Made by a program: the position numbers and the translations under genes
NCBI GenBank assembly: GCA_964606485.1
Contig: CAZSGP010000006.1
Span: forward strand, 62,925-126,924
DNA length: 64,000 nt
Source: an uncultured Planctomycetia bacterium
GTDB taxonomy: Bacteria > Omnitrophota > Gorgyraeia > 2-02-FULL-51-18
Direction: 5' to 3'
The notes under the pieces: generated by a model
What the model was told of the DNA's origin: nothing
Databases searched by the model: none
What the model saw: only the letters and a program-made list of their open reading frames with translations
In this document: positions 1 through 33,150 of the stretch, one piece after another
Layout: each line of letters opens with the position of its first letter
Numbering within the stretch: the first letter of the stretch is position 1

Positions 1-945
1 GAGCATTTTTAAATGATGGGATTCAAGAGGCGGTAAAATCGTCTGCTTAGAAACCGTGATAAATTTCTTAAAAACATAAGGCCGCGGCTGTTTGCCGTCG
101 ACGTTCGCAAACTCAAGTTCAAACTCAAATCGGTCGCCAGATCTGCTATCTTTTCCAAGGGATCGGCTCAAATCCGTATAAATGCGTTTGAACCAGGGTC
201 GCATGGCCACGCCGCAGACAAGACTCGTCATCGCGAAAATTCCTAAAGCGAAAGGATTATTATTTTTACTGCCTAAAACCGTGCGTTCAAAATCACCGCC
301 GGCCACTCGACCCACACTGGTGGACACATCATAAATAATGAGCCCTAAAAGCAGTAGCGCTCCAGAAAAAATGAATCCATAATCAAAAAACCGCATGAAA
401 CGGTCGGGAACCAACGCTCGAAATACTTTTTGGCCGTCCAAGGGTCCCAGTGGGAGCATGTTGGCGAGACCAAAAACTAAATTAATGTGCGCCACTGTTT
501 GAAAAATCCAGTAACCGGTGGCTAAGTATAGGCCTGCGAAAACCCCGTAAAGAATTAAATTCATGATAGGCCCGGCCAGCGCGATTTTGGCCAAGGCTAT
601 TTTATTTTCACCGTTTCCGGGATTAAAAAGCTTATTTTGAAAAACTGCAAAAAATAAAGTCGCGGGAACCCCTAAAAGTCCTGTGATGACAAGCGTCAGG
701 GCCGAAGCGCCGCTCATGAAACGCCACGGCTTCCATGAAATCTGACCGGCCATCCATGCAGAAACATCTCCCGCCTTGAGCGCCGCATAAGCGTGAGCCA
801 CTTCGTGCAGTACGATTGATTCTATGACCAGCCAAAACATTAGGACACCTTCAAGAAACCGAAGCGTCTCCACTTCCGCGAGTCGCGCACCGGCCATCGA
901 AAATTTCAGCTTTGATGCGGCGGGTTCGTCCAACATGTAGATCAC
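1..945 (-). other. M50 (site-2 protease)-like polytopic membrane domain at C-terminal end of giant ORF, continuing beyond window
   Basis: HExxH in a hydrophobic helix (IVLHEVAHAYA, 793-825) and NMLPLGPLDGQKVF (436-477) match the M50 HExxH / NxxPxxxLDGG motif pair, with hydrophobic helices around them. Confidence 0.65.
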
Positions 946-3900
946 GCTGTCCATGCGCTGAAGCATCGACACCGGAACGGACTCCGTGACCGGGCCCTGT
1001 AAACCACGAGCCACAATCTCCGCTTTTTTTTCGCCGTTAGCCATGAAAAAAATATTTTTGAACTCTGCGATATCCGCCATACCCATTGTGATCGCACGAG
1101 GCGCTTTGCGGATTTCCGGATAATCTTTTTCATTCGCAGCGATCGTAGACTCATTTAAATCGACGATCTGCATGGACTGGTTAAACCCGGAAAACCGCGG
1201 CGGCTCATTGAAAGCCAAGTGACCGTCGAGACCGACTCCTAAAATTCCAATATCCGCGCCGCCATTGTCCTTTAAATTTTTCATGTAACGCTCCAAGTGG
1301 CCCGGCACATTCCATTGGGAGCCGTCGATATAATGAATATTCGCTTCCGGAATCTTTACTCTCGAAAATAAATGCTTTCTTAAAAATGCTGCGAAGGAAC
1401 TCGGGTGACTGGGTGAAAGGCCCGCGTACTCATCAAGATGATAGGCCTGAACACGCGACCAGTCGATGTCTTGGCTAAATCGAGCCATATAATCCAACAT
1501 TTGTACCATGGTATTTCCGGTGGCAAAAACGATGTTTACACTTTTTCCAGATTTCTGGAGAGATTCGATTTTAGTAATGATCGCAATCGCCGCGGAAGAG
1601 GCAAATTTATGATCTTCCTCAACACGGATTAATTGTTTTGTGCGGCTGAGCGCAAGCTGAGAATCACCCGCTGAATTTTGAATCAAAATCTTTATTCTTT
1701 CCGATAAGTAACGAAGATAGGCGAGAAACTCCTTTTCGTCCGAAGGCTCGGTTATTCCCGCATCCGAATGGATCTCATCGATAAAATTTTTAAGTTCCGG
1801 CTCGGCTCTAAAAAATCGGTCGTACTTTTCTTCTAACGTCTGCTTAAACTCGCGAAAATCTTCTCTCCTATTCGCAAGGTTGGAATGGATAATTGCTAAG
1901 AAGCCTTTTTGATGCTCCTCAAGAATTCTTAGGAACATCGCTTCGGAGTCACGCGAAAAACTACCGGTCACCTTAATTTGAATTTCGTCTCCAAAAGCCC
2001 CATTTCCAGGAACAAGCTGAAAGTCCACACGGTAAAAATGACCGGCCAGCGCCATCGTGCGCGACACACCTGACCGACTCAGGCCTCGTGCCAACGCGTC
2101 AGAAACTTCGCGCAAATGGCCCGCGCCCACCACTTGGTAGGAGTATTCTCTGATTTCCTCTTTACGGGTTTTAGCAAAAAAACGAACGCGGCCGTTTGAC
2201 GGCGTGTCCTGGTAAAACCCGATTGAAAACCAGCGATTCTTCTTCGCGAAGCCTGCTTCAAGACGATCTCGAAACTCGTTTTTTATTCTTAATTCATCTT
2301 CGGCTCTTTGCAGAGGAGACCGAACAGCCGGATGGCCGTCAGGTCCCAAGCCGAATTCCCATTCGGAGATAGGATTACTGATCAGATGAGAGGGTTTTTC
2401 AGTTAACCGCGCTCCATTTGATTTAAATTTTTTCTCCAAATGGATGTAAGCAAAAGTTGCAGCAACACCCGCGGTGATGAGTTGTCCTGCGTACATTGCG
2501 CTGTCAGCAGCACTCAGCACCACGGGATCTCCTAAATGAATCCAGGAGAAGGTTCCCCCATAATTCCACACGTCAACCGCCGCCAATACCGCCGCCCAAA
2601 CGTAGAACCAGATGGCAAGATCAAGCGCGCTTTTAAGTTTTAAATACCCTTTCTCTTCGAGAACTAAACGGAGATAACCTGTCCCAATCGCCCATGCCAT
2701 TAGAAAGGCCGCACCCAGAATCCAGAACGGATCACGCGCGGCGTACACAATAAACGGAGGCGGATTGTGCAGAAGCTCGTGAGGCGTGACAAAAACCAGT
2801 GTTTTTTGATTTTCTTTGGATAAATTTTCATAGTAGGCCAGTCCGCGATCCGAAAAAACCTTTGGCCATATATAAAAAAATGGGGTGCTTGAAAAATAGA
2901 GACGCTCCATATAAGTATTCATCGGTACGCTTACTAAAATTATCAAAATCCGGATCATTTGACCAAGCGTTAGGTCATCCTCCGAAGAACCCGGTCTCAC
3001 CTCGACCTCGGTTTCTTGGGATTTCTGAACAAGCCGCGCGCCACGAGTCTCTCCAAAATCAATGCGCTCCCGCATGCGGTAAATCGTGCGGATAAGCTCA
3101 ATTCCTTGAGGGGAACGAAGTGTGTTCCCGATTCTTCCGTTTTGGCAGAGCTTTTTAATCACATCTTCTTCGTCTTCGTGGTCATTGCCTCTCCATTCTG
3201 CGTTAAGCAATTCCATCTTCGCAAGAATGCCCCTTAATAAACGCAGATCTCTGTGATTATTCTCTTTGGAAGCCAAACGCAGTTCTTCGTTAACGGTTTC
3301 CTCGGCCAGCCTAAAAATAGCCGTCATAGGAATCTTATTCCTGAAGCTTTTTATCTTTGCTTTCAATTTTGCTTTAAAATTGCGTTCGAGCCGGTGAATA
3401 AAAGCCTCTCTGCGGATTTCGGCTTCCTGGCTCTTTTGCCACTTTTTATAAAGAATATTTGCAATGCTTGCGGCAACAGCAAGCACCGCCAGCGTGCCCA
3501 AGGTAATACCTGAAAGCCGCGCGGCGGCAGGCAAAACCTCAAGCGCTTTGTCTTTTCTAAAACAAGCCAGGTACCACTCTGCGTTGTAGTGGCGAACTTC
3601 AGTATATTTTTCACTTGAGAAAAACGAGCGCTCGATTAAAAATTCTTTATCGGGCCTAAGACCCGGCAGCTCTTCGAACATGCCCGTTAAAACAAGGAAG
3701 CAAATTAAAGATCCGTTTTTCATTTGTAATCTTTTTTCTAGAAATTTACTTCTAAAATGAACGGCCTCGTCCCCCTCGGGTTCGGTGTAATAATAAAAAA
3801 CGAGATCCGCATCGCTCCAGGAAATATTAAACGCGTCCGTTTCGGGATAAAACTTAAAGTCGGGCTGTGCAATTTTTTTGGCCCGAGCATTCTCGAGCAG

Positions 3901-6900
3901 AGCTTCCGATTTTTTGGAGAGCATCTTAGAAATTTCAATAGAAGAGACCTTCATTCCAAAAACGTATTCTGCAAATATTCCTACCCGGAGATCTCCGGCG
4001 CCAAAATCAAGCAAGCGTTTATCTTTTAAGCACCCGTACCTCTTTTCAATTGCAAGAAACGACCGGTAAATATGCTCAAAATTTGCCATATCAAATAACG
4101 CCCCGCCCGAACCAAAGGGGCGATACTGATTTTGATATTCCTTATAAAATTTAATGACATCCTGTGCGCGCTTTGCTCGTTCCGTATCCGTATCGCTGAC
4201 ATTTAAAGAAAGCCTCGCCCCACCGGTTTCGGATTGAACTTTTTGAACGTACACGAGAAGCCTGCGGGCAATTCCGCTGGCTTCGGGGAATCCCATACGG
4301 ATAAAATGTTCCAGAAGCTGGATTAAATTATTTTCGGGAGTGCTTTGAGCACCCTTCACCCAAGTTTGAATCGCTATCACGGCTCGCCGAACTATGCCGG
4401 GATCAATCACTTCCTTAGCCAAGGAAACCCATACCTCCTTCACTTGATCGTCAAATAAATTGGGCTTTATAAGCAGTGCTTTTTGAAGTTCAGAGATAGC
4501 AGCGTCTCTTTCAGCGTCCGTTCCGAAAATGGCAGCCCTTAACAAGTTTGAGAAATTTATTTTATGGGCATCGGGCGCAGGCCCTTCCGCTTTAAGATTT
4601 TCAGCTATTTTCCAAATGCGCGCCCGCACAACCGTTTCGACCGGTTCATCAAAAATACGGTCACCCTCAACGCGGACTATTTTTCCTTCTCTGCAAAGTT
4701 TTTGACGGTTTACTTCCATGGCAACATTGAACTGATGCCACATATGGTCCCAAACCGCGCCGGCTTCTACGGAGGGATTCTGCCACCAGCGCTCATTTTC
4801 AGGAGTCTCAATGTTGTCCCACCACCAGGCCAGATCCTTGGCGGACTGCTCTAAACGAGCTTCGATATTTTGGCTAGGCCTGAAAACAGCCACGTCCATG
4901 GGAAGAAGCGATTGGTTCCGGTATTCATCGCGTTTAATTTCATTGTTTGCGACAGCTGCCAACGCAACCAGTTTTTCACCCACTTCAAGATTGACGCCGA
5001 AATGAAGGTTTTCAACTTTAGAAATCCGGTAACCCCCGGCAAAAAAATTGGAGGCGCGCGCCAAGATACGAAGCCCGATCATTTGCCGTGCCCAATTTTC
5101 ATCCATAACGCCGTTGAGTATTTTTTGAGCGTCTAACGACTCTTGACTAAAATTCCATCGCATCCGTTTTGTAATAGGTCCGCGGTCGATCGGTTCCAAA
5201 GCGGACGGCATCTGCCCCATCAAATGGGTGTCGCGCTTAAACAGCGAATCTAAATTCTTCTTTGAGGGCGACTCGTCGAATTTCTCATCCACTCGCGAGG
5301 GTTTCGCCGATAAAATCATTCGTGCGAGTGGCTCTTTCGCGTCGTTGATCAAGTCTATTCGCAAAAAGACGGTTCCGTCGGGCTGGGTTTTAACTAACTT
5401 CGTCCGGATTTTTAACGGCTGCAAATACAAGACCAGTCTGCTTCTATTTCCGTGAGGACGATTGGCTCGGAAATACAAAACTCGATCCGGATTAAAACCC
5501 GTCATCACGCGCTTCGCCTGGTTCACTAGCCGACTTAAGATCAGAAAATCATAAACGCGTTCTCCGGAAAGAAAATACCAGTAATAACCCTCATCAGATA
5601 GCCGTTGCGGCTCGCCTGACAACGAGAATAAATCCAGCATCCATTTCTCAAAACGGATCAGCTGTTCATCTAGCATCACACCACCGGAAAGCCGCGCGCC
5701 CCTCACAAAATCCACCACCACCTGATTCCATTCATCAAGATACTGAGGCAAATGCGAACGCAGCAGCGAGTGCTCCTGGCTTCCTTCGTCAATAATTTCA
5801 AGGGGGGTAGACATTGCCCGTGCATCTTCCCGCAGATTGTGAATGTCCACGAGCCGGTCGTGAGTGCTTGTCACGATGAGTTTTTTTGTGCCGTTTTTTC
5901 GCCGGACCGCGTTTGCCTTTTCGTGCATGTCAGACGGATAAGTCAAAATCGCGTGCAACTCTTCGAGCACATCGCGCGTCGACATGTTTTCGTAGTCCTG
6001 GCTAATCGCGTAGTGCAGCTCTTCCGGCACGCCGAGTTCCTTGAGCATTTTGAAAAAATATTTGCCTTGAGTAAAAGAACCCCAAAAGGGCGCTACAAAG
6101 AACGTCGCTGCAGCCGGCGCGTAAGACGCAAGCTGGGAAAACAGTCCCGAATACCTCTCAAGCGCTTTTTCTCTTAGCGCCACAACAGGCCAGGGTAAAC
6201 GTTCGGACACCGGCCACTTTAAAACAGTTAGCATCGGCTCAAGAATTTTTCGGACAGGCCCAAAATACGCTGACGCAGATTTCAGAAAATCTAAAATATT
6301 CCGGATCGCGTGATCCCTGTGTTTAAACGAAAAGGGATTGGAGCCGATCTCGACGGAAATTTTATCAATGACGTCCTGGTAGATTTCAGGCTGGCTAAAC
6401 AACGTGTCAATCAGCACATTTGCGTCCGAATGCCCCACCAGCACAATTGGCCGGTTGGGGTATTCTTTGGAAACCCATCGAATCGTGTGCGCAACGTTTC
6501 CAACGTAGTAATTCAAAATCTGTTCGGAACCCATTTTGCGAATGGCTAACGGCACGCGTCCCCGGTGGGGGGCCGCCACCGTCCAATCATCGGGAAAATT
6601 GGCTAATTGATTTTCCCAGGTGCCTCTGCCCACAAATCCGTGCACGAGCACGGCAAGTGGTGCTTGATTGGATGGCCCCTGACGTAAATCCACTTTAAAA
6701 CGGGTTTCAATGACTTGTCCCGCATGATCCTGAAACGGCCTTCCGTCCGATCCTGCCAGCGTCCGGGTTAATTCTACCTGCGGCCAGCGAAGTGCTTCTT
6801 TATCGACAAAAAAATCAACACGGGTTGGCTCGGGGTGTTTCCATAAAAGCCGCGCAGGCGCTTGAGTGAGCCAGTACTGCTTACGCTCAGGCTCCGAGCG

Positions 6901-9900
6901 TAAATCTTTGAGCACCCGATAAAGAGGCTTTCGCTTATGCCGGCCCGACATCATCACCATCGCGTGTTTCGAGTCAAAAAAAGCTTCCGGCGTCAGCGAC
7001 ATGAGATTTCCAGTCACCGCATACCCGGGGTCATACCGCTTTTTCAACAGCTCGCTTCCGGGGAAAATCGCGCCCATATTGGCTTGGCTACCGATACCCC
7101 AAATCGTGAGATCAAACCGGTTGCCGTTTTCGGCTAGCACTTCACGGCGTTTTATTTCGTAAGAAGCGACAAGCTCCTTAAATTTTTGAGCGTCCACGTC
7201 CACCCAATTCCCATCGTAAAAGCTAAAAAATTTCGGCTGGTCGATCGCGCGGTCTTTGCCCTTAATGCTTAAAAAATTAAAACAGGACCGGACCATCGCC
7301 TCATTGGCACCCGGCTCATCCGCCCCGGGTCCGCGCTCTTCCCCTAGGAAAAATACGATTCTCTGCATTTCTCCGGGCTTAAATCGAGTGTAGTATTCTT
7401 TTTTGGTGAGGAGCTTGTAAAATTTCACCGGGGTATCGCCTCCGGCAAGCGCTACAAAAAACTTGGCGTCTTTTTTGCTTCTTAGCTTTTGAATGGCAAG
7501 CTCTATAAACCGGTCCGCCGCTTTTTTACTCAATTCCTCATCGTTGAGAGCGGACGTGTCCACCCGGAACCGAGGTGTCGCGGCAATTCCTTCGCGCTGT
7601 CTTAGAAACTGATTAAATTCCTCTTCCCGCAGGGCGCGCGTCCGCGCAGGCGTCCACTCGCCGGCATCAAATCGCTCAAAAATTAAATCCGGACTGGCCT
7701 TCGTTCCGTATTCCACAATGCGGTCAAACTCGCTCCATTGATTTTTTGGGTGCAGGCGTTTTGGGTAGCCAAGCGCAAATCCCACAAACCGCTCGAGCTC
7801 CGCGTCGTCAAAGAAACCGTTTAAGTCCGGCGGATAAACCGGCTCTGCGATCAAACTCCATTTTTCATTTTTAATTTGCTCTTCAAATACTTTGAGCGCT
7901 GTCAAAAATGCCCGCCGGTTATGGGGCGGCGTGGTGACAAGTGAAACGGCCGTGTGATCAAGCTTGTAATCCGATACCGCCTGGGCAATGAGATGACGGC
8001 TCATCTTCAAATTTTCAACCGTGTTGGGCGTTGGCGTGGTGTCGCGGTAAATAACGGGCTTTCCTTGAAATTCGGTGGGCATATTAAAAGTATGCGTCAG
8101 AATAAATTCGATCAACTCCGACTCGGTCGACTGTTCATTTTTTAAGAGCCGCTTAAAAATAACGCGGTCGCGGCTTTTAAAAGAATAGGCATAATTTCTT
8201 AGCATTAAATCTTTCAAGTCCTGTGTCGCCCGGCCAATGCCGCCTGTGATCACTATCGGAATCACGTCCCCCGCTTCGAATCGCTTATTCCACATTTGGG
8301 CGAATGCTTCAAACGCTTTGAGATCTTGGTGTCCGAGCAGCGCGTAAACCGTGGGCTTGCCGCTAAAACCCGCTGTCTGCTCTGTTTTAGACAGTTCGTC
8401 AATTAGCGGCTGGATGGCTCCAATCATCCGGTTCCGGGAATCAGAGAGCACATTGGCCGCGAGGCGCGCGCCGCTTTGAATCGGATTGGGAGAGCCACGA
8501 TTAAACCTTAACTGTTGGAAATGAATATAATCCCGTGTCGTTTCTACATCCTGAGTCTTGAGCAGAACTTTTAATACCCGCGTAAACATTCCATGTCCAT
8601 AAACAAAAACGGTTTTGCCCGGATAGCGCTGGTTTATTTCGTCGATAAATTTCCGCACTCTCACCATAAACTCAGGAAAACTTTCGCCGTTTCGCGGCGC
8701 AATGAGGGCGCTGTTATTTTTATACGCCTGCGCCATTTTTTGCTGTGCGGGATCAAGCTCATCTATTTTTTTGCCGCCCCAGTCGCCGAAATTAATTTCT
8801 TTAGCGCGCATCTCCAATTCCACATCGATCGCCCGCTTCAAGCCGAGGTGATAAAGACGCGGGATTTGAAATGAAGCCGTTTCTCTTGCCCGGAAAAGCG
8901 GGCTCGTCAAAAACACATATCCTTTTCCCGGATCCCCATCACTCAGGAGACGCTGGTATTCTTGCCACAACTCCTGAGCTCCACGCCAGGCCTGGGATTT
9001 ACCTTTGTCGTCTAAACGAGCAAGCGGACCCTCGTTCTGACCCTGGAACACCTCCATAGAATTTCCGTAAGTATTGCCGTGCGGAATCATCACAAGATCA
9101 CATTTCAAAACCGGAGGCTCGTAGCCGGCTTTGTATCGGATATGACCCTCTTGATCAATGACTTCAAAACCAAGATCTGAAAGCATTTTTTTGCCTCTCA
9201 ATCGGCTTCTTAAGTCGTCATAAAATAAATATTTAAAAATTAAATTTGCCCAGGCGGCAAGACGCGCACCTGCTTGTTGGGACAATTTCTCGACATCTTT
9301 TTTTAGTTCCTTAATTTCCCTTTCAAAGTCCAGCATAAGGATGTTAAAAAGATCCAAATTTTTTCGGCTAATCGCCTGAGCGACGTGATTCACTAGCGCT
9401 GCCGACTTGGACTTTAATGTATTGATCAGATCAGCGCGTGTTTTACGATTAAGCGATGGATCTGAGAGTTTAATTCTGGCATGCGTCGCAAAGTCGGTTT
9501 GCGCATCAATTAAGCGATTATAAAGAGGCTGAAAATAAACCTGAGCCTCTATGGTTTCATTGAGTGCTCGCTCGCGGGCCAATTCGAAGAGCATTGGAAT
9601 AACTTTGTCTTTCGAATCAAACTCGCTCCCCTCAATCGTCGACAGGTATTGCTGAAGCTCTCCAGGAACACGCTCAGTCAGAAAGACGTTTCCCTTTATA
9701 TGATCCGCGAAATGAAAAACGCCGGGTTTACCGCGGCGCCCGGCACGCCCTTCGAGATGCAGCGCTGTGAGCAGTGACTTGCTGTAATGGGTGCTCAAAA
9801 CCACTAAGCCCGCAACCGATATTTTTTTCCCGCGGAATTCCGCTTCCACGGGCTTGTAAAGTTTAGGGTCCAATTTAATTTCGGCGCCGCGGCTAGCCAC

Positions 9901-12900
9901 CTGAGCTGTAATCGTGATGCTGAAAGAATCTCCGATTCTATTCCAATTAAGCGCATCGCTCACTTCATCACGTCCATTAATAACCCGAATCGGTTGGAGC
10001 GGCTGCGTGCCGCCCTTCAAAAAGGGTTGCCGCTCATTCTCGGCCTCGAGCGCATCGCGGTACATTTCGGCTTCTTCCGGCGAACGGGTATTGAGCAAAA
10101 TAGGACGACCGGTCTCATAAAACACGCGGATTGCATCCACAAAATGTGCGATCTTTTCTTTTTCGTTTAAAAAATATTCCTCCGGAATGACCGTTCGATT
10201 GTTGGGGTACTTGGGCTTAACTTGCCGAACCGTCGCGCCATAAAGCGCTTCTAAAGCCGCCGCGCGCTTGGAATCTAAAACTCCTATGACTGCGCTGAAC
10301 TCAAGTGTGTTCCTGTAAAAATAATGCGGCGTTAAGAGCTCGCGCGCGACCGCTTCCCCCATAACCTTCTTTCCTTCTTTAATTTCTAAAAAGGGTTGAA
10401 AAAAGCGGATAACACGGTGCTCCTGCCGATCGCCAGTAGATTCGTTTCTGAGCGTAATTTTTTGATCCCATTTACTCGAATGCTTGGCCCGGCTTGTCGA
10501 AAAATATTGTTCACCTTCCTTGTAAAATAATCGCGCTTGTATAGCAATGTCTAAAAGCTCGCGCGGAAACTCGGGGTCTGAATAAAACTTCTGCAAAACG
10601 TCTCTTTTGGACAACTCAGCCAGCTGAGCGCGCCTAGTTTCATCGAGCTCAATGTCAAGTTTTCTCCGAAATTGGCCCTCCTCTTCCACCCAAATGACTT
10701 TTACCTTTCCCTCATCTAAAAGCCGAGTCGCCAATTCATTTACAGCGATATAGATGCCTTTTAAGTCCTCATCCATCTCTTCCGTGGGGTCCGCAAAAAC
10801 GCGAGGCTCATACGCTTCGTCCCAGAGAGGTTCTTCTGCCTCATCTAAAAACACCCACTTTTTTTTGTCAGAACTTTGACTCTTTCCAAAATATTTTAGA
10901 GAGAATCTGTCGATCATATGCCTAAACATAAATTGATCGTAGGTCCCGTGAATAAAATCGGCCTTTCGAGCTAGTTCGGCGCCATTCGTCTCCGTTAAGG
11001 AGGCCGTTTTAAAACCTAGACGATTTAAGATGGCCTCGGCAACCGCTGAATTTCTGGATGCCAGCGGGATATTAAAATCATGTATTTCAACTCGGTAACC
11101 AAAAAGCATTTTTAAATACGCCGCTAGAACCAGCGAAAGTGACTTTCCTTCGGACATTCGCATGGTCACGAGCGCTCGATTCTCTAAGAGAAGTAAAGCC
11201 GCTTCAATTTGTTTCTCGTTAGGAAGACTATTCGGATCGGTGTTTTGATCTCCGATAAACGTCCGTATGGAATCATAATCCAAGCTCTTATCACTCGCCG
11301 TCTTCGCTGCGGCAATTGAAAAAATGGCAATAGCCCAACCTATAAACTCCGGATTTGTTTTTAATGTGGGGTCTGCTTTAAATTTTTCCTGAACCAATGG
11401 ATAAAGTGCTTCGATGGATTCTGGGCCCATATGAGTAAGAGTTTGAATAAATTTTGTTTTATACCTACAAACATCTTCTATGAATTTTTTTTCTTTGCGC
11501 GACCGCAGAGCCGCCTGAGTCTTCCTTAAGAAGCCTTCCGCATCCGATAAGGAATCAATCTCATAAAGCTTTAATTTTTTGTATAAAGTCCTTTGGTCTA
11601 TTCCAAGCCGAATGGCAGCAGCTCCTCTGAAGTCGCCTGTTGAGTATAAAGCCCCGATAATCACCATTTTTTCAAGCTCACGCCACTGCAACACTTCTTG
11701 CTTCGCCATCCACAAATAAGCCGATGAATAATTGACTTCAATTCGCTCACGGGCCGACGCCTGGGAATCCACGCCTTCGACTCGAATCTCGTTGGACACT
11801 CTCTGGGAATCCAACCCCGTACTCAGGGCGGTTCCGCGTATAGATCCGCAATTAGCGTACGCGTTCAAAATAAGCATTTGTTTAACGCGCCTTAAGTTGA
11901 AATCAATATTTTCTGGAAAATTTTCAAGCGGAGCTTCTGGCTTCTCATCAGGAATGATGGACCTTAGATTTTTTAAATCCAGCTTTCCTTTTTCAAAATC
12001 AATTTTATTTTGGAGTGTCTTTAAAAAATCGGAATGCTGTGCGTTCTTCGTTGCCAAAGCTGTCAGGGAATCCATAGTAGGAGCTTGGGCGTCGGTAACC
12101 GCAACTATTTCAATCGTTCCCATTTTTTCTTCAGCTGCGGCAAGTCGCGCGCCGTCAGATCTTATAATCGCAATATTGTGCAAAATTTCCCGAGCGCGTT
12201 TTCTAATTTTTTGAGTATAAATCGTGTCATCTGTTAACCCGCTGATGTCTTGACGAACGGCTTCGGTCAGCTCGTCCATCTGATCTTTTGAAAACAACAA
12301 AGGGTTTGTTAAAAGCATCTGATAGGCCGCTTCCGTCAAATTCCACCGACGGCTCGTATCTCCCATGCTCATCCCTTCGGCCAGATAACGCGATGCCAAG
12401 ACCGCATTGAATATTGAAGTTAATTCTTTTTCCGCCCACTTTTTTTGTGACAAGGGAATAATAATATCGTTGATAAATTTATCCATTTGAAATCCGGATT
12501 GGGATAAATCCCCTTCAGCGTAAGAGCGCTGAATGTTTCTCTTCGTTTTAATATGCCCAAAAGCCACAAAGAGTTTCCCCACTAGATAAAAATTAGTCGG
12601 ATCCGAAAAATCGGTTTCTTTGATGAGAAGTGACGCCACATTCAGCATGGCATACGATGCGCTGAGTGCCAGCGACTCTCTTTTCAGAGGTTCCTCATGA
12701 AGACCCGACCAGTGAATAAAAAACTGATTCCAAATCTCCCTCTTCTGGCTTGTGCTGGCATTTTCCAGCAAGTCATGAAGCGCATCAAAAAAATCAATTC
12801 GAACCTTCTGAATATCGCTGTCGGAGTTATCGTATTTTTTTAAATAGTCGTTCAAAATAATATCGATTTTGGTCGACGCATCGGTTTTCAATCCAACGGT

Positions 12901-14892
12901 TTTTTTATATTTTTCAAACGGGGACTCTCCGAAGCCCCAAGACTTCTTAAGCATTCTTGCCGCATCCTGGGGAGCGACGCCCCCGCAAGCGGCTAACAAC
13001 AGGGATAGTGCTAAAGCGGAGACACGGTTTATATAGACAGGGAGTCGCGCGCCTTCGCTCGGCGACCGGCTCCGGTCCTTGCGCTTCATATGCTCGATAT
13101 CCTTGAGAATGTTTTGAATCGTGGTTTTTACCGGTGAAGCGTAAAGGCCAAAAAACACCACCATCCCCAGAAGCTGACAAAGAGATTGCTCGGCGCGCTC
13201 CAAAACTTTCTCATCCGCCGCCAGTCCGAGTTTCGAGTTTTCACAGACTTTCACGATATCGGGATCAGACTGTACGATCTTGAGAATATATTCGGTCCGC
13301 TCTTTTTGAATAGCTCTCCATTCCTCTCTGTAGGCTCTCATTTTGCTTCGAACCCAATCCATCCAACCGAGCCTCGCGCCGCGCGACGCCTTCGTATTGT
13401 CGGTAACGACAGAGAAGATAACTTTCAACTCACTTTCCAAAGATTCTTTAACACTCAACCGGCCGCCCTGCGCCGGATACAACACCAAATTTGCTGCCGG
13501 CTGCACATTCCACAAAGCGCTCGGCGCCTGGATTTTTAAAGCATCGAAACGGGCAATGATTGGAGCAGCATTTTTAGGCGGAAGTTGAGATAGGAGTAAA
13601 TTTTCATACTTACGGACATTGGTTTCCGCAAGCACGCGCGGTTGGATAATCTCGCAATCGACCTCTTTGTCCGCAAAAAGCCGTTTCAAATGCTCCGAGT
13701 GAAAACCACCGGCGACGAGAATCGCTTTCGTTTCATTTTCAGATTTCATTTTTGAAAGCGTATTTTTTACAAACACGTGGTCGCGTTTTAAGGTGAGCGC
13801 ATAAAATGTTTTGGCCTTTTTAACGAATTTTTCGTAGCGAGGCTCAAGGTACACAGCGTTCTCAAAACCCTTGTGAAGACCAGAAATCATGCCGTTCAAA
13901 TCGCCGGATATTTTTTTCATCGAAAATTGCTTGGGGTTTTCTCGGATAGCCTTATAGTCGCCTGGCTCTAAATTGAGACGGGTTAGTTTTTGGAGTGTGT
14001 GGAGAGTTTCTCCGATCTCAGACAACCGTCTTTCGTCTGACGTCTGGACAATATTTTCAAAAATCCGATCTTCAAGCAGTGATTTTTCGCGAAGCAGCTC
14101 ATCCAAATCGAGTTTCCGCACGCGTTTAAGGTAATTTTTAGACGCCGTATTATTTTTCTTTAAAACTTTTTCAAGATGCGTCAGCCTGGAAAGCACTTGG
14201 ATTTGTGACAAATCTCCAAATGAAATACCTAGAGACTTCGCCTCCCGAACAAGATACGAAAAATAGTCAGCTGAAAGCATTTGTCCGGAATCAAATTGCG
14301 TTTTATTCGTATCGAATCGAAGCAGTCTTTCATTAAAAATCTTGGCCTTAAGGAAGCTGGCCGTTCGCTCCACCCGCTCTAGATACGCTTCGACGAAATC
14401 GCGCTCTAGTTTTAAATCACGATAAAGTCCGAGCCCTTCGAAATAAAGCGCTTTATCCTCCACTCCCCAAAGCTTGAAAGGCTTGTCCGAAATAAGGTCC
14501 AAGTAGTCCGGCCCTTGAATGGTCCCTTTCTGTAAAAAACTGTCCGCAATCTGCTTCGCTTTTCGACGATCGCCGATCGCTTTTGGTCTCAGATAAGACA
14601 GTGAGTCATCACCGGTTCCCGCTTCTAAAAATACAATCTTAATTTTTTCTTGAGTGATAAGCTCATCAATGGTTTTGGCGATATTTTTCTGCGCGGAAAG
14701 ATTCAAGTGCGCGTCTTGAATGATGTAGATTTTTTTAGTGAAGGGTTGCTTCGCTTGGTGAAAAAAAGAAAGCGGCTCACTACCGGCGGCAAATGCAAGA
14801 TCTTGCGCCAAAAAAGAAATAACGAGTGCAAATGATAGGCACTTTAAAAAGCTTGGGGTTCTGCTTTTTAAAAGATTAAATTTATAAAACAA
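1..14892 (-). CDS. Giant multidomain protein, at least 4,960 aa, 3' end beyond window start. Probable TTG start near 14892 followed by a signal peptide (FYKFNLLKSRTPSFLKCLSFALVISFLAQDLAFA). Domain modules are listed as separate features.
   Basis: Reverse-strand frame (codon first bases at coordinates divisible by 3) is open from the stop at 14947-14949 down to coordinate 1. This was checked codon by codon at 1-960, 5690-5710, 9250-9285, 9710-9755, 13030-13060 and 14830-14950. The ORF track shows only short antisense ORFs in this 14.9 kb, consistent with one ORF lacking an in-window stop. Multiple specific family motifs are present in frame. Confidence 0.8.
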   Translation of the reverse strand, partial: MFYKFNLLKSRTPSFLKCLSFALVISFLAQDLAFAAGSEPLSFFHQAKQPFTKKIYIIQDAHLNLSAQKNIAKTIDELITQEKIKIVFLEAGTGDDSLSYLRPKAIGDRRKAKQIADSFLQKGTIQGPDYLDLISDKPFKLWGVEDKALYFEGLGLYRDLKLERDFVEAYLERVERTASFLKAKIFNERLLRFDTNKTQFDSGQMLSADYFSYLVREAKSLGISFGDLSQIQVLSRLTHLEKVLKKNNTASKNYLKRVRKLDLDELLREKSLLEDRIFENIVQTSDERRLSEIGETLHTLQKLTRLNLEPGDYKAIRENPKQFSMKKISGDLNGMISGLHKGFENAVYLEPRYEKFVKKAKTFYALTLKRDHVFVKNTLSKMKSENETKAILVAGGFHSEHLKRLFADKEVDCEIIQPRVLAETNVRKYENLLLSQLPPKNAAPIIARFDALKIQAPSALWNVQPAANLVLYPAQGGRLSVKESLESELKVIFSVVTDNTKASRGARLGWMDWVRSKMRAYREEWRAIQKERTEYILKIVQSDPDIVKVCENSKLGLAADEKVLERAEQSLCQLLGMVVFFGLYASPVKTTIQNILKDIEHMKRKDRSRSPSEGARLPVYINRVSALALSLLLAACGGVAPQDAARMLKKSWGFGESPFEKYKKTVGLKTDASTKIDIILNDYLKKYDNSDSDIQKVRIDFFDALHDLLENASTSQKREIWNQFFIHWSGLHEEPLKRESLALSASYAMLNVASLLIKETDFSDPTNFYLVGKLFVAFGHIKTKRNIQRSYAEGDLSQSGFQMDKFINDIIIPLSQKKWAEKELTSIFNAVLASRYLAEGMSMGDTSRRWNLTEAAYQMLLTNPLLFSKDQMDELTEAVRQDISGLTDDTIYTQKIRKRAREILHNIAIIRSDGARLAAAEEKMGTIEIVAVTDAQAPTMDSLTALATKNAQHSDFLKTLQNKIDFEKGKLDLKNLRSIIPDEKPEAPLENFPENIDFNLRRVKQMLILNAYANCGSIRGTALSTGLDSQRVSNEIRVEGVDSQASARERIEVNYSSAYLWMAKQEVLQWRELEKMVIIGALYSTGDFRGAAAIRLGIDQRTLYKKLKLYEIDSLSDAEGFLRKTQAALRSRKEKKFIEDVCRYKTKFIQTLTHMGPESIEALYPLVQEKFKADPTLKTNPEFIGWAIAIFSIAAAKTASDKSLDYDSIRTFIGDQNTDPNSLPNEKQIEAALLLLENRALVTMRMSEGKSLSLVLAAYLKMLFGYRVEIHDFNIPLASRNSAVAEAILNRLGFKTASLTETNGAELARKADFIHGTYDQFMFRHMIDRFSLKYFGKSQSSDKKKWVFLDEAEEPLWDEAYEPRVFADPTEEMDEDLKGIYIAVNELATRLLDEGKVKVIWVEEEGQFRRKLDIELDETRRAQLAELSKRDVLQKFYSDPEFPRELLDIAIQARLFYKEGEQYFSTSRAKHSSKWDQKITLRNESTGDRQEHRVIRFFQPFLEIKEGKKVMGEAVARELLTPHYFYRNTLEFSAVIGVLDSKRAAALEALYGATVRQVKPKYPNNRTVIPEEYFLNEKEKIAHFVDAIRVFYETGRPILLNTRSPEEAEMYRDALEAENERQPFLKGGTQPLQPIRVINGRDEVSDALNWNRIGDSFSITITAQVASRGAEIKLDPKLYKPVEAEFRGKKISVAGLVVLSTHYSKSLLTALHLEGRAGRRGKPGVFHFADHIKGNVFLTERVPGELQQYLSTIEGSEFDSKDKVIPMLFELARERALNETIEAQVYFQPLYNRLIDAQTDFATHARIKLSDPSLNRKTRADLINTLKSKSAALVNHVAQAISRKNLDLFNILMLDFEREIKELKKDVEKLSQQAGARLAAWANLIFKYLFYDDLRSRLRGKKMLSDLGFEVIDQEGHIRYKAGYEPPVLKCDLVMIPHGNTYGNSMEVFQGQNEGPLARLDDKGKSQAWRGAQELWQEYQRLLSDGDPGKGYVFLTSPLFRARETASFQIPRLYHLGLKRAIDVELEMRAKEINFGDWGGKKIDELDPAQQKMAQAYKNNSALIAPRNGESFPEFMVRVRKFIDEINQRYPGKTVFVYGHGMFTRVLKVLLKTQDVETTRDYIHFQQLRFNRGSPNPIQSGARLAANVLSDSRNRMIGAIQPLIDELSKTEQTAGFSGKPTVYALLGHQDLKAFEAFAQMWNKRFEAGDVIPIVITGGIGRATQDLKDLMLRNYAYSFKSRDRVIFKRLLKNEQSTESELIEFILTHTFNMPTEFQGKPVIYRDTTPTPNTVENLKMSRHLIAQAVSDYKLDHTAVSLVTTPPHNRRAFLTALKVFEEQIKNEKWSLIAEPVYPPDLNGFFDDAELERFVGFALGYPKRLHPKNQWSEFDRIVEYGTKASPDLIFERFDAGEWTPARTRALREEEFNQFLRQREGIAATPRFRVDTSALNDEELSKKAADRFIELAIQKLRSKKDAKFFVALAGGDTPVKFYKLLTKKEYYTRFKPGEMQRIVFFLGEERGPGADEPGANEAMVRSCFNFLSIKGKDRAIDQPKFFSFYDGNWVDVDAQKFKELVASYEIKRREVLAENGNRFDLTIWGIGSQANMGAIFPGSELLKKRYDPGYAVTGNLMSLTPEAFFDSKHAMVMMSGRHKRKPLYRVLKDLRSEPERKQYWLTQAPARLLWKHPEPTRVDFFVDKEALRWPQVELTRTLAGSDGRPFQDHAGQVIETRFKVDLRQGPSNQAPLAVLVHGFVGRGTWENQLANFPDDWTVAAPHRGRVPLAIRKMGSEQILNYYVGNVAHTIRWVSKEYPNRPIVLVGHSDANVLIDTLFSQPEIYQDVIDKISVEIGSNPFSFKHRDHAIRNILDFLKSASAYFGPVRKILEPMLTVLKWPVSERLPWPVVALREKALERYSGLFSQLASYAPAAATFFVAPFWGSFTQGKYFFKMLKELGVPEELHYAISQDYENMSTRDVLEELHAILTYPSDMHEKANAVRRKNGTKKLIVTSTHDRLVDIHNLREDARAMSTPLEIIDEGSQEHSLLRSHLPQYLDEWNQVVVDFVRGARLSGGVMLDEQLIRFEKWMLDLFSLSGEPQRLSDEGYYWYFLSGERVYDFLILSRLVNQAKRVMTGFNPDRVLYFRANRPHGNRSRLVLYLQPLKIRTKLVKTQPDGTVFLRIDLINDAKEPLARMILSAKPSRVDEKFDESPSKKNLDSLFKRDTHLMGQMPSALEPIDRGPITKRMRWNFSQESLDAQKILNGVMDENWARQMIGLRILARASNFFAGGYRISKVENLHFGVNLEVGEKLVALAAVANNEIKRDEYRNQSLLPMDVAVFRPSQNIEARLEQSAKDLAWWWDNIETPENERWWQNPSVEAGAVWDHMWHQFNVAMEVNRQKLCREGKIVRVEGDRIFDEPVETVVRARIWKIAENLKAEGPAPDAHKINFSNLLRAAIFGTDAERDAAISELQKALLIKPNLFDDQVKEVWVSLAKEVIDPGIVRRAVIAIQTWVKGAQSTPENNLIQLLEHFIRMGFPEASGIARRLLVYVQKVQSETGGARLSLNVSDTDTERAKRAQDVIKFYKEYQNQYRPFGSGGALFDMANFEHIYRSFLAIEKRYGCLKDKRLLDFGAGDLRVGIFAEYVFGMKVSSIEISKMLSKKSEALLENARAKKIAQPDFKFYPETDAFNISWSDADLVFYYYTEPEGDEAVHFRSKFLEKRLQMKNGSLICFLVLTGMFEELPGLRPDKEFLIERSFFSSEKYTEVRHYNAEWYLACFRKDKALEVLPAAARLSGITLGTLAVLAVAASIANILYKKWQKSQEAEIRREAFIHRLERNFKAKLKAKIKSFRNKIPMTAIFRLAEETVNEELRLASKENNHRDLRLLRGILAKMELLNAEWRGNDHEDEEDVIKKLCQNGRIGNTLRSPQGIELIRTIYRMRERIDFGETRGARLVQKSQETEVEVRPGSSEDDLTLGQMIRILIILVSVPMNTYMERLYFSSTPFFYIWPKVFSDRGLAYYENLSKENQKTLVFVTPHELLHNPPPFIVYAARDPFWILGAAFLMAWAIGTGYLRLVLEEKGYLKLKSALDLAIWFYVWAAVLAAVDVWNYGGTFSWIHLGDPVVLSAADSAMYAGQLITAGVAATFAYIHLEKKFKSNGARLTEKPSHLISNPISEWEFGLGPDGHPAVRSPLQRAEDELRIKNEFRDRLEAGFAKKNRWFSIGFYQDTPSNGRVRFFAKTRKEEIREYSYQVVGAGHLREVSDALARGLSRSGVSRTMALAGHFYRVDFQLVPGNGAFGDEIQIKVTGSFSRDSEAMFLRILEEHQKGFLAIIHSNLANRREDFREFKQTLEEKYDRFFRAEPELKNFIDEIHSDAGITEPSDEKEFLAYLRYLSERIKILIQNSAGDSQLALSRTKQLIRVEEDHKFASSAAIAIITKIESLQKSGKSVNIVFATGNTMVQMLDYMARFSQDIDWSRVQAYHLDEYAGLSPSHPSSFAAFLRKHLFSRVKIPEANIHYIDGSQWNVPGHLERYMKNLKDNGGADIGILGVGLDGHLAFNEPPRFSGFNQSMQIVDLNESTIAANEKDYPEIRKAPRAITMGMADIAEFKNIFFMANGEKKAEIVARGLQGPVTESVPVSMLQRMDSVIYMLDEPAASKLKFSMAGARLAEVETLRFLEGVLMFWLVIESIVLHEVAHAYAALKAGDVSAWMAGQISWKPWRFMSGASALTLVITGLLGVPATLFFAVFQNKLFNPGNGENKIALAKIALAGPIMNLILYGVFAGLYLATGYWIFQTVAHINLVFGLANMLPLGPLDGQKVFRALVPDRFMRFFDYGFIFSGALLLLGLIIYDVSTSVGRVAGGDFERTVLGSKNNNPFALGIFAMTSLVCGVAMRPWFKRIYTDLSRSLGKDSRSGDRFEFELEFANVDGKQPRPYVFKKFITVSKQTILPPLESHHLKML
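950..1720 (-). other. Glucosamine-6-phosphate deaminase/isomerase (NagB)-like domain
   Basis: IVFATGNTMVQML ... HLDEYAGL ... GADIGILGVGLDGHLAFNEPP (verified at 1201-1260) ... APRAITMGM ... DEPAASKL. This is a close match to NagB family motifs (GsTp, DEY, GiGenGHiaFNEP, AiTmG, D.aAa.L). Confidence 0.7.
1750..2350 (-). other. Second TraB/GumN-type GxxH region (YQVVGAGHLREVSDALARGL)
   Basis: VVGAGHL matches the TraB/GumN C-terminal signature. Confidence 0.35.
3700..4100 (-). other. Class I SAM-dependent methyltransferase-like domain
   Basis: Motif I KRLLDFGAGDLRVGIFAEY, followed by acidic and hydrophobic motifs typical of the Rossmann MTase fold. Confidence 0.4.
6150..6660 (-). other. alpha/beta-hydrolase-like domain
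   Basis: VLVHGFVGRGTWENQ (HG oxyanion motif) and IVLVGHSDANV (nucleophile-elbow-like GHSxA) within about 80 residues. Confidence 0.4.
6950..7500 (-). other. 6-phosphogluconolactonase/NagB-fold domain (first copy)
   Basis: FFVALAGGDTPVKFYKLL and FFLGEERGPGADEPGANEAMVR resemble Pgl/DevB motifs (alSGGsTP ... gDER..p.d..SN). Confidence 0.5.
8570..9100 (-). other. Histidine-phosphatase (phosphoglycerate-mutase) fold-like domain with variant first motif (IPHGNTYGN instead of RHG)
   Basis: LVMIPHGNTYGNS ... GESFPEFMVRV ... TVFVYGHGMFTRVL pattern matches the RHGx..N / GES / HGG layout of the family, but the catalytic Arg position is Pro. Confidence 0.35.
9650..11250 (-). other. SecA-like DEAD-box motor domain embedded in giant ORF
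   Basis: In-frame motifs: VTMRMSEGKSLSLVLAAYLKMLFGYRVEIHDFNIPLASRNSA (compare SecA [37 protein letters not shown]); KADFIHGTYDQFMFRHMIDRF (SecA DITYGTNNEFGFDYLRDNM); ASRGAEIKL (SecA AGRGTDIxL); LHLEGRAGRRGKPGVFHF (SecA motif VI LRGRSGRQGDPGSSRFY), verified at 9711-9753. Confidence 0.6.
13500..14800 (-). other. TraB/GumN/TIKI-like N-terminal domain shared with the two other giant ORFs (motifs IYIIQDAH and ILVAGGFHSEHLKRLF)
   Basis: Alignable by eye with the N-termini of the 44746..50247 ORF (VWLIEDIH; VLVVGGFHTAGLVNDL) and the 58437..64000 ORF (FIVGGYHAPSLQKLF). The [IV]VG[GA]xH..L pattern resembles the C-terminal GxxH motif of the TraB/GumN family. Confidence 0.45.
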
Positions 14893-15073
14893 AATAAATT
14901 TCACCCAATATTTTAAATTAATCTGAACATAAAATTTAACAACGGGTTAAAGTAAAAAGTGCTCGGAAAAGTATGCCTAATCTGCTCAGTAAAATCAAAT
15001 TCGGTTAAAAAAAATTTTTAATCAGAAGTAAGTGAATTTAAGCACAAGTGACTCATTCAAAAAAAATATTGGC

Positions 15074-32221: not shown

Positions 32222-33150
32222 TTAAGACCTAAGTTCCCCGCTCTTATGCCCACTGATCAAGACATCGCTCGGAGCGGTTCCGGTGGGAATGGTTTGAAGC
32301 ACGCTGTCCTTGTTTAAATCAATCAGGCTGACATTGGATGACAGTTGATTCGTCACATAAGCCTTGTTTCCTTCGGGAGTGATGGTGATTCCCATGGGCC
32401 GGGTCCCCACCTGAATGCGGGCTCTCTCCTCAAAATTTTTAAGATTGATCACGGAGATGGTGTTGTCGTTGCGGTTTGAGACAAGCAGAGTTGATTCCTT
32501 AGGATCAATTTCAATGGCATAGGGGCCATCTCCTACTTTGATTTCTTTTAGGAGATCTCCAGATTGGGTGTCGAGCGCTTTGAGAACTCCTTTGGAATAA
32601 TCGGTGACGTAAAGTGTTTTTTCATCTCTTGAAAGGTGAAGCCCCAAAGGTTGGTCGCCCGCTTTGAAGGTATTCATAATATTCCCAGATTTGGTGTCCA
32701 TTTTTGAAACCGTACCATCTAGCGTATTGGAAATAAAAAGCGTGTCTCCAGATTGAGTCATGGCCGCTTTCAAGGGCATTGAGCCATGTGTTGGAAAATT
32801 TTGGGTTTTTGAGGTCGCAAGATCCAGCACTTCAACGCTGTCGGTGAGTGAATTCGTCACATAAGCTTTCTGTTCGTCAGGGCTCAAAACCGCGTTGGAA
32901 GAACCTTCTGAAAATACGGTCTTTGATTTGGTATTAAAAGTATTGGTGTCAATTGAAGAAACTTTTCCATTTTGAGAGAAGAGATACACTTTATCGCTTT
33001 TTTTTGCGGCAACCAGATCCGCAGGAGCTTCTTTTATTGAAATATCTTGAATAGAGTCATTCACCTTTGCGCGCTTCACGTTCAGTCCGTCTTTAGTCAG
33101 GACGTAGACACCTCTCATATTGAGAGAAGTCTGAGAGGATAAAGGTTTCT
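32222..33150 (-). other. YVTN-family beta-propeller at C-terminus of the TpsA-like exoprotein
   Basis: Four or more YVTN-type repeats. Confidence 0.55.

Follow-up and report, generated by a model that had tools for sequence, protein, structure and literature searches.

A recurrent GARLA motif at the module junctions of giant Omnitrophota proteins, a candidate polyprotein processing site

Results

Giant ORFs of the window and their GARL motifs

This study concerns a short peptide motif, GARL, that recurs in the giant open reading frames (ORFs) of a 64,000-nt stretch of DNA (the window) from an uncultured bacterium placed by GTDB in the Omnitrophota (GenBank assembly GCA_964606485.1, contig CAZSGP010000006.1, positions 62,925 to 126,924). 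The window has a GC content of ∼47% and carries four giant ORFs, G1 to G4, all on the minus strand (Table 1); an earlier, sequence-only reading had listed three, passing over G4. A six-frame scan of the window found 10 in-frame copies of GARL in the portion of G1 that lies inside it, three in G2, three in G3 and none in G4, all of them on the minus strand. The full product of G1, P0001, has 5,725 amino acids (aa) and 12 copies. The sequence-only reading had counted at least nine copies in G1 and overlooked one (2404-2415); its coordinates for the others agree with the scan to within ∼25 nt, and its three copies each in G2 and G3, the latter together with one GARF, were found again. From composition, 0.18, 0.08 and 0.06 copies would be expected in G1, G2 and G3 (∼0.3 in total, in keeping with the earlier estimate of fewer than one), and GARL is by far the most over-represented 4-mer of the three proteins (16 copies versus 0.32 expected). 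The pentapeptide GARLA occurs seven times versus 0.03 expected, and four further sites in the giant ORFs read AARL and look like variants of GARL.

The ordinary ORFs of the window (37 ORFs, 9,987 aa) contain no GARL, as had been noted before, where 0.3 would be expected. It is likewise absent from the ordinary genes of a second locus of the same genome (L001, 2,253 aa) and of two loci from related genomes (L002, 5,592 aa; L003, 5,977 aa), which gives zero copies in ∼23,800 aa of ordinary protein from three genomes. GARL is thus not equally common in the ordinary genes of the source genome, as far as L001 and the window cover them. These counts confirm that the recurrence of GARL is real and not a product of chance.

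G1 to G3 have in common an N-terminal domain of ∼450 aa, hereafter the head domain; the first ∼146 aa of G3 inside the window match its C-terminal part. The start codon of G2 is probably an ATG near 50169. G4 is a Gly-rich, TpsA-like protein of the two-partner-secretion type with a C-terminal beta-propeller and is unrelated to the other three; having neither the head domain nor GARL, it serves as an internal negative control.

Table 1. Giant ORFs of the window, their motif sites and associated features (window coordinates).
Feature	Position	Strand	Remarks
G1 giant ORF	1..14904	-	GTG start at 14904; continues beyond window start
G1 unit 1	13381..14904	-	signal-peptide-like N-terminus and TIKI/EreA-like head domain
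G1 GARL site 1	13369..13380	-	P0001 aa 509; directly C-terminal of head domain
G1 GARL site 2	13042..13053	-	aa 618; followed by lipoprotein-type signal peptide PVYINRVSALALSLLLAAC, ~12979-13041
G1 GARL site 3	12142..12153	-	aa 918; start of 961-aa unit with HTH_8 and SecA_DEAD
G1 GARL site 4	9259..9270	-	aa 1879; start of 266-aa His_Phos_1 unit
G1 GARL site 5	8461..8472	-	aa 2145; end of His_Phos_1 unit
G1 GARL site 6	5689..5700	-	aa 3069
G1 GARL site 7	4210..4221	-	aa 3562
G1 AARL variant site	3514..3525	-	aa 3794; transmembrane-like helix follows
G1 GARL site 8	3031..3042	-	aa 3955
G1 GARL site 9	2404..2415	-	aa 4164; start of 508-aa unit ending in NagB-like domain
G1 GARL site 10	880..891	-	aa 4672; junction of NagB-like unit and multi-transmembrane M50 unit
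G4 giant TPS-domain exoprotein	32222..37615	-	no head domain, no GARL
G2 giant ORF	44749..50247	-	~1,800 aa; head domain and three cargo units
G2 head domain	49009..50136	-	homologous to G1 head (blastp 4e-17, aa 38-413)
G2 GARL site 1	48682..48693	-	aa 519; followed by lipoprotein signal peptide VTRQPDGGILMAAAGALILALPAC; start of HEAT-repeat unit
G2 GARL site 2	46807..46818	-	aa 1144; followed by lipoprotein signal peptide AHRKPFALASLLSLATVVIIPSC; 492-aa unit
G2 GARL site 3	45331..45342	-	aa 1636; start of last, 198-aa unit, C-terminus -ASA
G2 clade C-terminal domain	44749-45080	-	
G3 giant ORF	58440..64000	-	continues beyond window end
G3 GARL site	63666..63677	-	
G3 GARL site	63564..63575	-	
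G3 GARL site	62373..62384	-	
G3 AARL variant site	61299..61310	-	codons GCC GCG CGG CTT
G3 AARL variant site	60771..60782	-	
G3 AARL pseudo-site	58467..58478	-	13 aa from C-terminus, AARLAERHVLASA-COOH; part of clade-conserved tail
G3 clade C-terminal domain	58440-58800	-	

Between the sites lie units with recognisable domains, referred to here as cargo. G1 is predicted to be a polyprotein of at least 12 units inside the window, with Pfam matches to SecA_DEAD/P-loop_SecA, HTH_8, His_Phos_1, Glucosamine_iso (two copies) and Peptidase_M50 and with several transmembrane-like segments. The third unit of G2 (45343-46818, minus strand), bounded by two GARL sites, combines a signal peptide, a lipobox Cys and an OEP/TolC-like domain and looks like a complete precursor of an outer-membrane-factor lipoprotein. 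The cargo of G3 includes HTH_3 and Response_reg domains. Every cargo enzyme scores below its NCBIfam family cut-off, and free-standing His_Phos_1 genes (57255-57881 and 25834-26331, both on the minus strand) exist besides the His_Phos_1 unit of G1; from this the cargo copies appear to be divergent additions and not the housekeeping versions.

A head domain with a TIKI-like fold defines a large family

P0001 has at least 119 homologues of 2.7 to 8 thousand amino acids (kaa), most of which, where a name is given, are called Candidatus Omnitrophota or Omnitrophica. The region in common is confined to the first 450 to 500 residues and is N-terminal in every case, so that the head domain is the sole part present in all of these giants. 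When the head-domain alignment was used in a word-indexed protein search, no more than 10 fragments at contig ends came back, and the size of the family was taken from an exhaustive profile search of representatives. It gave 10,422 clusters (50% identity) with the domain, mostly from Candidatus Omnitrophota; 7,238 of them reach E ≤ 1e-30, and in the best 150 of these matches the domain lies at about residues 40 to 530. The family is divergent: the three head domains of the window are only 20 to 30% identical to one another.

Pfam, NCBIfam and PDB-sequence profile searches with the head domain gave no significant match (those from PDB were noise), the faint Pfam matches being PF04187 (ChaN/Tiki) with an E value of 0.14 on G2 and DUF5694 with 0.008 on G3. 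Tiki and RRSP, both of the TIKI superfamily, are site-specific endopeptidases, and Tiki cuts Wnt3a between Leu and Ala. The predicted structure of the head domain adopts an α/β fold of the TIKI/erythromycin-esterase/RRSP type around a parallel β-sheet core, with a helical insert of ∼250 aa. Five residues, D64 and H66 (D-x-H within IQDAH), E94, R374 and H402 (within GGxH), are invariant in an alignment of 26 sequences and 95 to 100% conserved across 120 head domains. They correspond to the catalytic set of RRSP (E3900-x-H3902, E3930, R4001 and H4030) and to Bcr135, where H85 is paired with E113, 28 residues away (PMC6254334). The His to Glu spacing is 28 in the head domain, RRSP and Bcr135 alike, and the Arg to His spacing is 28 in the head domain versus 29 in RRSP. 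By motif and spacing, the head domain thus appears to keep an intact TIKI-type catalytic set. The label "TraB-like" given by the sequence-only reading holds at the level of fold and active site, not at that of sequence profiles.

Every head domain begins with a signal-like N-terminus, made up of an N-region rich in K/R, a hydrophobic core and the conserved sequence FLxQ[DE]LxFA[AN]P. This segment (14773-14904 on the minus strand of the window; P0001-P0045) is unusually conserved for a signal peptide, with the consensus L[KR]xxSxxLxxxFLxQ[DE]LxFA[AN]P[ED] and an acidic residue near the predicted cleavage region, and may be a specific targeting or recognition element.

The motif recurs across the family and varies by lineage

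GARL occurs 432 times in 120 homologues, where ∼25 copies would be expected, with up to 22 in a single protein, and 181 times (11 expected) in a second, independent sample of 119 proteins taken from the profile search. The giants rich in GARL form a clade with a C-terminal domain of ∼100 aa that ends in -[SA]A (the last ∼110 aa, P0001-P0064), and among clade members with this ending GARLA is present in 72 of 103 proteins, with 368 copies versus 1.8 expected. Altogether the motif is enriched ∼20- to 200-fold in more than 200 related giants. A site at aa 440 to 680, directly after the head domain, is found in 66 of 74 clade members. Twenty of these 74 also have a site-like GARL, GARM or AARL 10 to 25 aa from the C-terminus, such as AARLAERHVLASA in G3. 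The C-termini of other head-domain clades read -IQA/-YQA, -SL or -EGMV.

A logo of 425 sites carries information only at G-A-R-L-A, the fifth position being Ala in 78% and Ser in 12%. A search for an extended cleavage consensus in the flanks, proposed by the sequence-only reading, brought out nothing beyond these five residues except a weak preference for A/S at -1 and S/P/T at -2, the other flanking positions being free. Since the flanks are unconstrained, GARLA is a short linear motif and not part of a repeated domain.

Some lineages use variants of the motif, namely GARM(A), AARL(A), GSRL(A), GTRL and ARMS. In deeper clades of the head domain other motifs, each preceded by small residues, are found: RSELR in P0086 (16 copies), P0058 and P0052, and G-[AKS]-S-L-G, including GASLG, in P0060 (12 copies), P0062, P0055 and P0117. 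Such change by lineage is the behaviour that would be expected of a protease co-evolving with its sites. No repeated short motif was found in the clades ending in "QA" or "WSV/GMV".

Sites fall between domains and in or beside low-confidence segments

The placement of sites between recognisable domains, suggested by the sequence-only reading, was borne out both by Pfam/NCBIfam matches and by comparison of conserved blocks. No site in G1 lies inside a Pfam domain. The nagB profile match stops 3 aa short of the next site and the M50 membrane unit begins at one, so that the NagB-like/M50 junction is marked by GARL exactly as first described (site 10). In two other family members, P0004 and P0025, every Pfam or NCBIfam domain checked was contained within one unit, several with near-complete profile coverage. 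Examples are PALP (1592-1925 inside unit 1555-1933), Response_reg (2200-2293 inside 2185-2323) and the NagB, HAD and Aldose_epim domains. Blocks of cargo conserved between giants span a site 32 times, where random placement would give 95. The units between sites have a median length of 269 aa (interquartile range 139-440). In an AlphaFold2 model of the head domain with the next unit, site 1 lies at the end of a 60-residue linker with predicted local distance difference test (pLDDT) values <50, and site 2 of G1 lies within another segment of pLDDT <50. Each ORF appears to encode several independently functional, protein-sized units, and a short motif is conserved at the junctions between them.

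Export signals follow the sites

Three sites in the window are directly followed by lipoprotein-type signals, with the lipobox sequences LLLAAC in G1 and LALPAC and IIPSC in G2, and an Lgt gene is present in the window. Across the giants, we searched for twin-arginine translocation (Tat)-like signals, defined as RRxFL with a hydrophobic region. Nine of the 14 found lie within 30 aa downstream of a site, examples being GARL-VKGTRREFLKTLAAG and GARL-AENPNRRLFLKNV; as these zones make up 4.3% of giant sequence, only 0.6 would be expected. When signal peptides and lipoboxes after sites were sought in the giants by strict criteria, almost none came up, and under relaxed criteria hydrophobic stretches after sites were only ∼2-fold enriched. 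Tat and lipoprotein signals work at free N-termini, and their presence just after sites is therefore the strongest indirect argument for cleavage.

Cassette-like units, and different cargo at a syntenic locus

A unit of 768 aa is 76% identical between P0013 (3809-4576) and P0042 (4801-5567), where it occupies different positions, and at either end, in each of the two proteins, its homology stops within 3 to 7 aa of a site. Another unit, of 731 aa and 57% identity between P0013 and P0025, starts exactly at a site in both. On these alignments the units behave as cassettes that move between giants.

The G1 locus (window 1-16015) is syntenic with the locus of P0006 in another Omnitrophota genome (L003:8851-32163), the common order being Ppx, two Tmk genes, PhoB/R, PhoU, QueC, ApbA, the giant, IlvD, RNase_H_2, M15, Cu-oxidase_4 and LemA. 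The two giants have only the head domain in common, the cargo being wholly replaced: methyltransferases, AceK and 2-Hacid_dh in P0006, versus SecA_DEAD, His_Phos, NagB and M50 in G1. P0006 (L003 10001-26146) also contains an internal duplication (aa 2519/3282 and 2680/3318), in which the duplicated site pairs share identical flanking codons (NLSF-GARL-A; GARL-[VA]-ENQV).

The ordinary genes of the window are housekeeping genes, including Pst/PhoU/PhoRB, Tmk, Ppx, Lgt, Psd, MutY, ZnuABC, MTHFR, Dps, RlmN and a free-standing His_Phos_1. Two Tmk-like genes are adjacent and slightly overlapping (23452-24832, minus strand), an arrangement kept in L003. No protease gene linked to the giants was found in the window or in L001 to L003. 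Directly downstream of P0004 (L002:25013-27079) lies a gene for a 688-aa secreted protein with a weak match to Reprolysin_3 (zinc metalloprotease); it is the only protease-like neighbour seen for any giant and has no counterpart in the window.

Codon usage at the sites

The sequence-only reading had argued from differing codons that conservation is at the protein level and does not reflect a DNA repeat. In the window this holds: the sites use all six Arg codons, all four Gly codons and CTC, CTT, TTA and TTG for Leu, and only about half of the bases are shared between copies of the same peptide. Because the same peptide is kept across such different codons, selection at the peptide level is certain. 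One bias was seen, in that the Ala of the site is encoded by GCG or GCA in 16 of 16 cases while GCY accounts for 44-46% of Ala codons elsewhere; codon-pair context did not explain it.

In the relatives, by contrast, the sites show strong synonymous constraint. The preferred codons are GGC, GCG, CGG, CTG and GCG, with enrichment p-values from ∼1e-2 down to 5e-15. Counts at the sites are GGC 18/18, GCG 15/18 and CTG 15/18 in the L003 giant, and GGC 18/20 and CGG 15/20 in the giant of L002 (10001-24916). The 12-mer GGCGCGCGGCTG is present exactly at 14 of the 18 sites in L003 and at 10 of the 20 in L002. Allowing up to two mismatches, all 17 copies on the coding strand of the giants in L002 and L003 are in frame and none is out of frame, and the few near-matches elsewhere in these loci fit chance. 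Beyond the giants a single exact copy was seen, on the opposite strand within the LemA gene (L003:32136-32147, minus strand), and this may be due to chance. Candidate causes of the added constraint are in-frame microhomology that serves the shuffling of cassettes, a pause at rare codons, and RNA pairing of the palindromic GCGCGC.

Discussion

Every computational test of the polyprotein-site idea raised by the sequence-only reading was favourable (enrichment, flanks, boundaries, structure, signals, cassettes and head fold), and it is from these that we infer cleavage. We propose, with a probability of roughly 0.65, that GARLA serves as the processing site between modules in a very large family of bacterial polyproteins and that cleavage takes place at or near the motif. 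Each giant would run from a signal-like N-terminus through the ∼450-aa TIKI-fold head and a variable series of cargo units to the ∼100-aa tail ending in -[SA]A. The sequence [A/S]-G-A-R-L-[A/S] would be the recognition site of a sequence-specific endopeptidase that cuts at or next to the motif; cutting would free the head domain and each cargo unit as separate proteins, and any unit that starts with a Tat, Sec or lipoprotein signal would then undergo export independently. We favour the bond between Leu and Ala in GARLA, by analogy with leucine-specific processing in toxins of the MARTX group (multifunctional autoprocessing repeats-in-toxin) and by Tiki. Cutting between Ala and Arg instead would leave products whose ends resemble the natural C-terminus, -[SA]A.

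As to the enzyme, we speculate that the head domain, acting in cis or in trans, does the cutting, for which we would give a little less than even odds; a protease encoded elsewhere in the genome is the next candidate, with a chance of about one-third. The sequence-only reading had named both the TraB-like and the M50 domain as possible proteases. The head domain stays a candidate, and the M50 domain was ruled out as a general protease for these proteins because it is found in G1 only.

Several observations weigh against this proposal, and in particular against the head domain as the enzyme. No significant match was obtained between the head domain and the TraB_PrgY_gumN, Cofac_haem_bdg, Erythro_esteras or DUF5694 hidden Markov models, and its best Foldseek matches are erythromycin esterases with weak E values of ∼0.02. 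The fold does not assure protease activity, as esterases and non-enzymes also belong to the TIKI superfamily. The Sec-signal-like N-terminus predicts an extracytoplasmic head domain, whereas Tat precursors and cytoplasm-type enzymes among the cargo imply cytoplasmic cutting of the sites. This conflict may be resolved if the protease is a separate, cytoplasmic one, or if the chain is exported as a whole and, as with MARTX toxins, processed outside, possibly within a host cell. A large clade ending in "SL" has the same head domain, and no repeated motif was detected in it. The motif variant tracks the genome and not the subclade of the head domain; for instance, both members of the pairs P0032/P0049 and P0027/P0048, each pair apparently from one contig, are rich in GARM. 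Some 10% of the inter-site units are shorter than 40 aa. Finally, the Arg codon at the L003 sites is CGG in 17 of 18 cases versus 12% in the background (p = 5e-15), which a pure peptide signal would not predict.

Among the alternatives, the one that fares best is a variant of our proposal in which only the enzyme differs: a trans-acting cytoplasmic protease encoded elsewhere, the TIKI-like head having a different, extracytoplasmic job. The genome-wise distribution of variants, together with the use of the one GARL motif by three window heads that are only 20 to 30% identical, favours a single shared protease acting in trans, and the signal-peptide-like N-terminus of the head and the motif-free "SL" clade point the same way. 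Yet the window and L001 to L003 hold no protease gene linked to the giants, and the head, with its full catalytic set and a site right after it in 66 of 74 clade members, is the sole universal part that looks enzymatic. We therefore regard this version as possible but doubtful.

A second alternative places the selected feature in the DNA. An in-frame element of 12 to 15 nt (GGCGCGCGGCTGGCG in the relatives) could be a site of microhomology, recombination or gene conversion, at which whole modules are gained, lost or exchanged with the frame kept; GARLA would then be its translation and would not have to be a cleavage site. The near-invariance of GGCGCGCGGCTG in L003 and L002 and the codon enrichment are what such an element would leave, as are the cassette breakpoints at sites, the complete turnover of cargo at the syntenic locus, and the P0006 duplication with its identical site flanks. 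As a full explanation it is nevertheless unlikely. The window copies share only about half of their bases and use all six Arg codons, the coding-strand copies in L002 and L003 are in frame without exception while near-matches elsewhere fit chance, and as peptides the variants AARL, GARM, GSRL, RSELR and GASLG differ conservatively; nor would such an element account for the Tat and lipoprotein signals downstream. An element of this kind is compatible with processing at GARLA and could act in addition to it.

A third possibility, slightly less probable again, is that GARLA is an uncleaved docking or recognition signal, one per module, for a chaperone, a targeting factor or the head domain, and that the giants stay intact as multi-enzyme, partly membrane-embedded proteins in which the internal hydrophobic segments are signal-anchor and stop-transfer sequences. 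Omnitrophota giants have been published as membrane-associated single proteins with many transmembrane helices (10.1101/2023.11.21.568195; PMC10066038), and G1 has several transmembrane-like segments. Against this, twin-arginine and lipobox signals, which normally need a free N-terminus, cluster right after the motif, and the units equal whole free-standing proteins in size and domain content and move independently; a docking motif of five residues with no structured context would also be unusual. That the motif is due to chance, a compositional artefact or a repeated structural domain can be dismissed, given an enrichment of at least 50-fold in the window that was replicated in two independent protein sets, free flanks, and the absence of GARL from ordinary genes.

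Several other mechanisms were considered and ruled out. That the Arg position holds a reassigned or stop-like codon is excluded by the use of all six Arg codons, and that translation starts internally at the Leu codon is excluded by the use of CTC, CTT and TTA and by the lack of Shine-Dalgarno spacing. There is no conserved upstream peptide as in 2A-like ribosome skipping, and unconstrained flanks exclude a self-cleaving fold.

Omnitrophota and other host-associated bacteria characteristically carry giant ORFs, and what becomes of these after translation is an acknowledged open question. A search of the literature on Omnitrophota and on bacterial polyproteins found no mention of GARL or of Omnitrophota polyproteins. 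West-Roberts et al. ask whether the Omnitrophota giants are cleaved and propose C39 or S8 peptidases, but the lack of known cleavage points blocked further analysis (10.1101/2023.11.21.568195). Seymour et al. describe the function of these ORFs as poorly understood (PMC10066038), PMC10407285 treats SpeD fusions only, and a 2024 survey of huge proteins names the still unidentified protease motifs as an obstacle. The question becomes directly testable with a motif that defines the junctions, a domain that may be the protease and a family of over 10,000 clusters, and the motif may show where these puzzling proteins are cut. If the proposal is right, these giants would be the first described case of a cellular organism using polyproteins on a large scale, the TIKI superfamily would gain a new activity, and biotechnology would gain a new pair of specific protease and site.

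A wider and more tentative speculation, which we think rather improbable in all its parts, is that Omnitrophota possess thousands of cargo polyproteins, each with a Sec-exported TIKI protease head and up to ∼25 modules of enzymes and envelope proteins, whose junctions are dual-coded (GARLA for cleavage; GGCGCGCGGCTGGCG as microhomology for module swaps) and which are either delivered in a MARTX-like manner or represent a general mode of expression. Omnitrophota are ultra-small and thought to be predatory or parasitic. Were the giants delivered into a host or prey cell, the Tat, Sec and lipoprotein signals of the modules would use the export machinery of the recipient.

Comparison with known systems

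The Archaeovorin-type giant proteins (West-Roberts et al. 2023) also occur in Omnitrophota and combine a divergent SecA_DEAD, transmembrane segments and N-terminal signal peptides with sparse annotation. They carry a C39 or S8 peptidase at the N-terminus, together with glycosyltransferase, glycosyl hydrolase, NUDIX and SecA_DEAD domains (10.1101/2023.11.21.568195). Archaeovorins exceed 30,000 aa and are proposed to use C39 or S8 proteases, whereas the giants described here have 1.8 to 8 kaa and a TIKI-like head; G1 to G3 (1.8 to 5.7 kaa) share with them only SecA_DEAD, in G1, and no C39 or S8 was found. Within the TIKI superfamily (TIKI, TraB-PrgY, erythromycin esterase, ChaN and RRSP) the head domain is set apart by its ∼250-aa helical insert, by Asp in place of Glu as the first acid, and by always being fused at the front of a giant protein.

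In the gingipains RgpA and Kgp of Porphyromonas, the protein's own protease cuts a polyprotein at Arg or Lys into catalytic and adhesin parts. These comprise few modules of one complex, rely on a cysteine protease and have no modular cargo system. Viral polyproteins (picornavirus, flavivirus, nidovirus) yield many mature proteins per ORF by means of a short junction motif and an encoded protease, and those of flaviviruses contain internal signal peptides. Here, in contrast, the giants reside on a cellular chromosome among ordinary genes, the candidate protease has another fold, and units are shuffled between paralogues.

The MARTX and large clostridial toxins offer a further likeness: a giant ORF with variable, cassette-like enzyme modules between conserved N- and C-terminal parts. 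In MARTX toxins a built-in protease frees the modules by cutting the linkers between them after Leu. Module content varies between close relatives, and the MARTX effector RRSP shares the TIKI fold with the head domain. There are also differences. Pfam scans of G1 to G3, P0004 and P0025 found no RTX/GD-rich repeats and no C80 cysteine protease domain; here the candidate protease is N-terminal and TIKI-like, and the site is a defined pentapeptide and not just a Leu in a loop. The cargo consists mostly of metabolic and envelope proteins, some with bacterial export signals of their own. The architecture appears akin to that of an autoprocessing polyprotein or a MARTX toxin, and what would be new is the unrelated fold of the candidate protease and the unprecedented range of the cargo.

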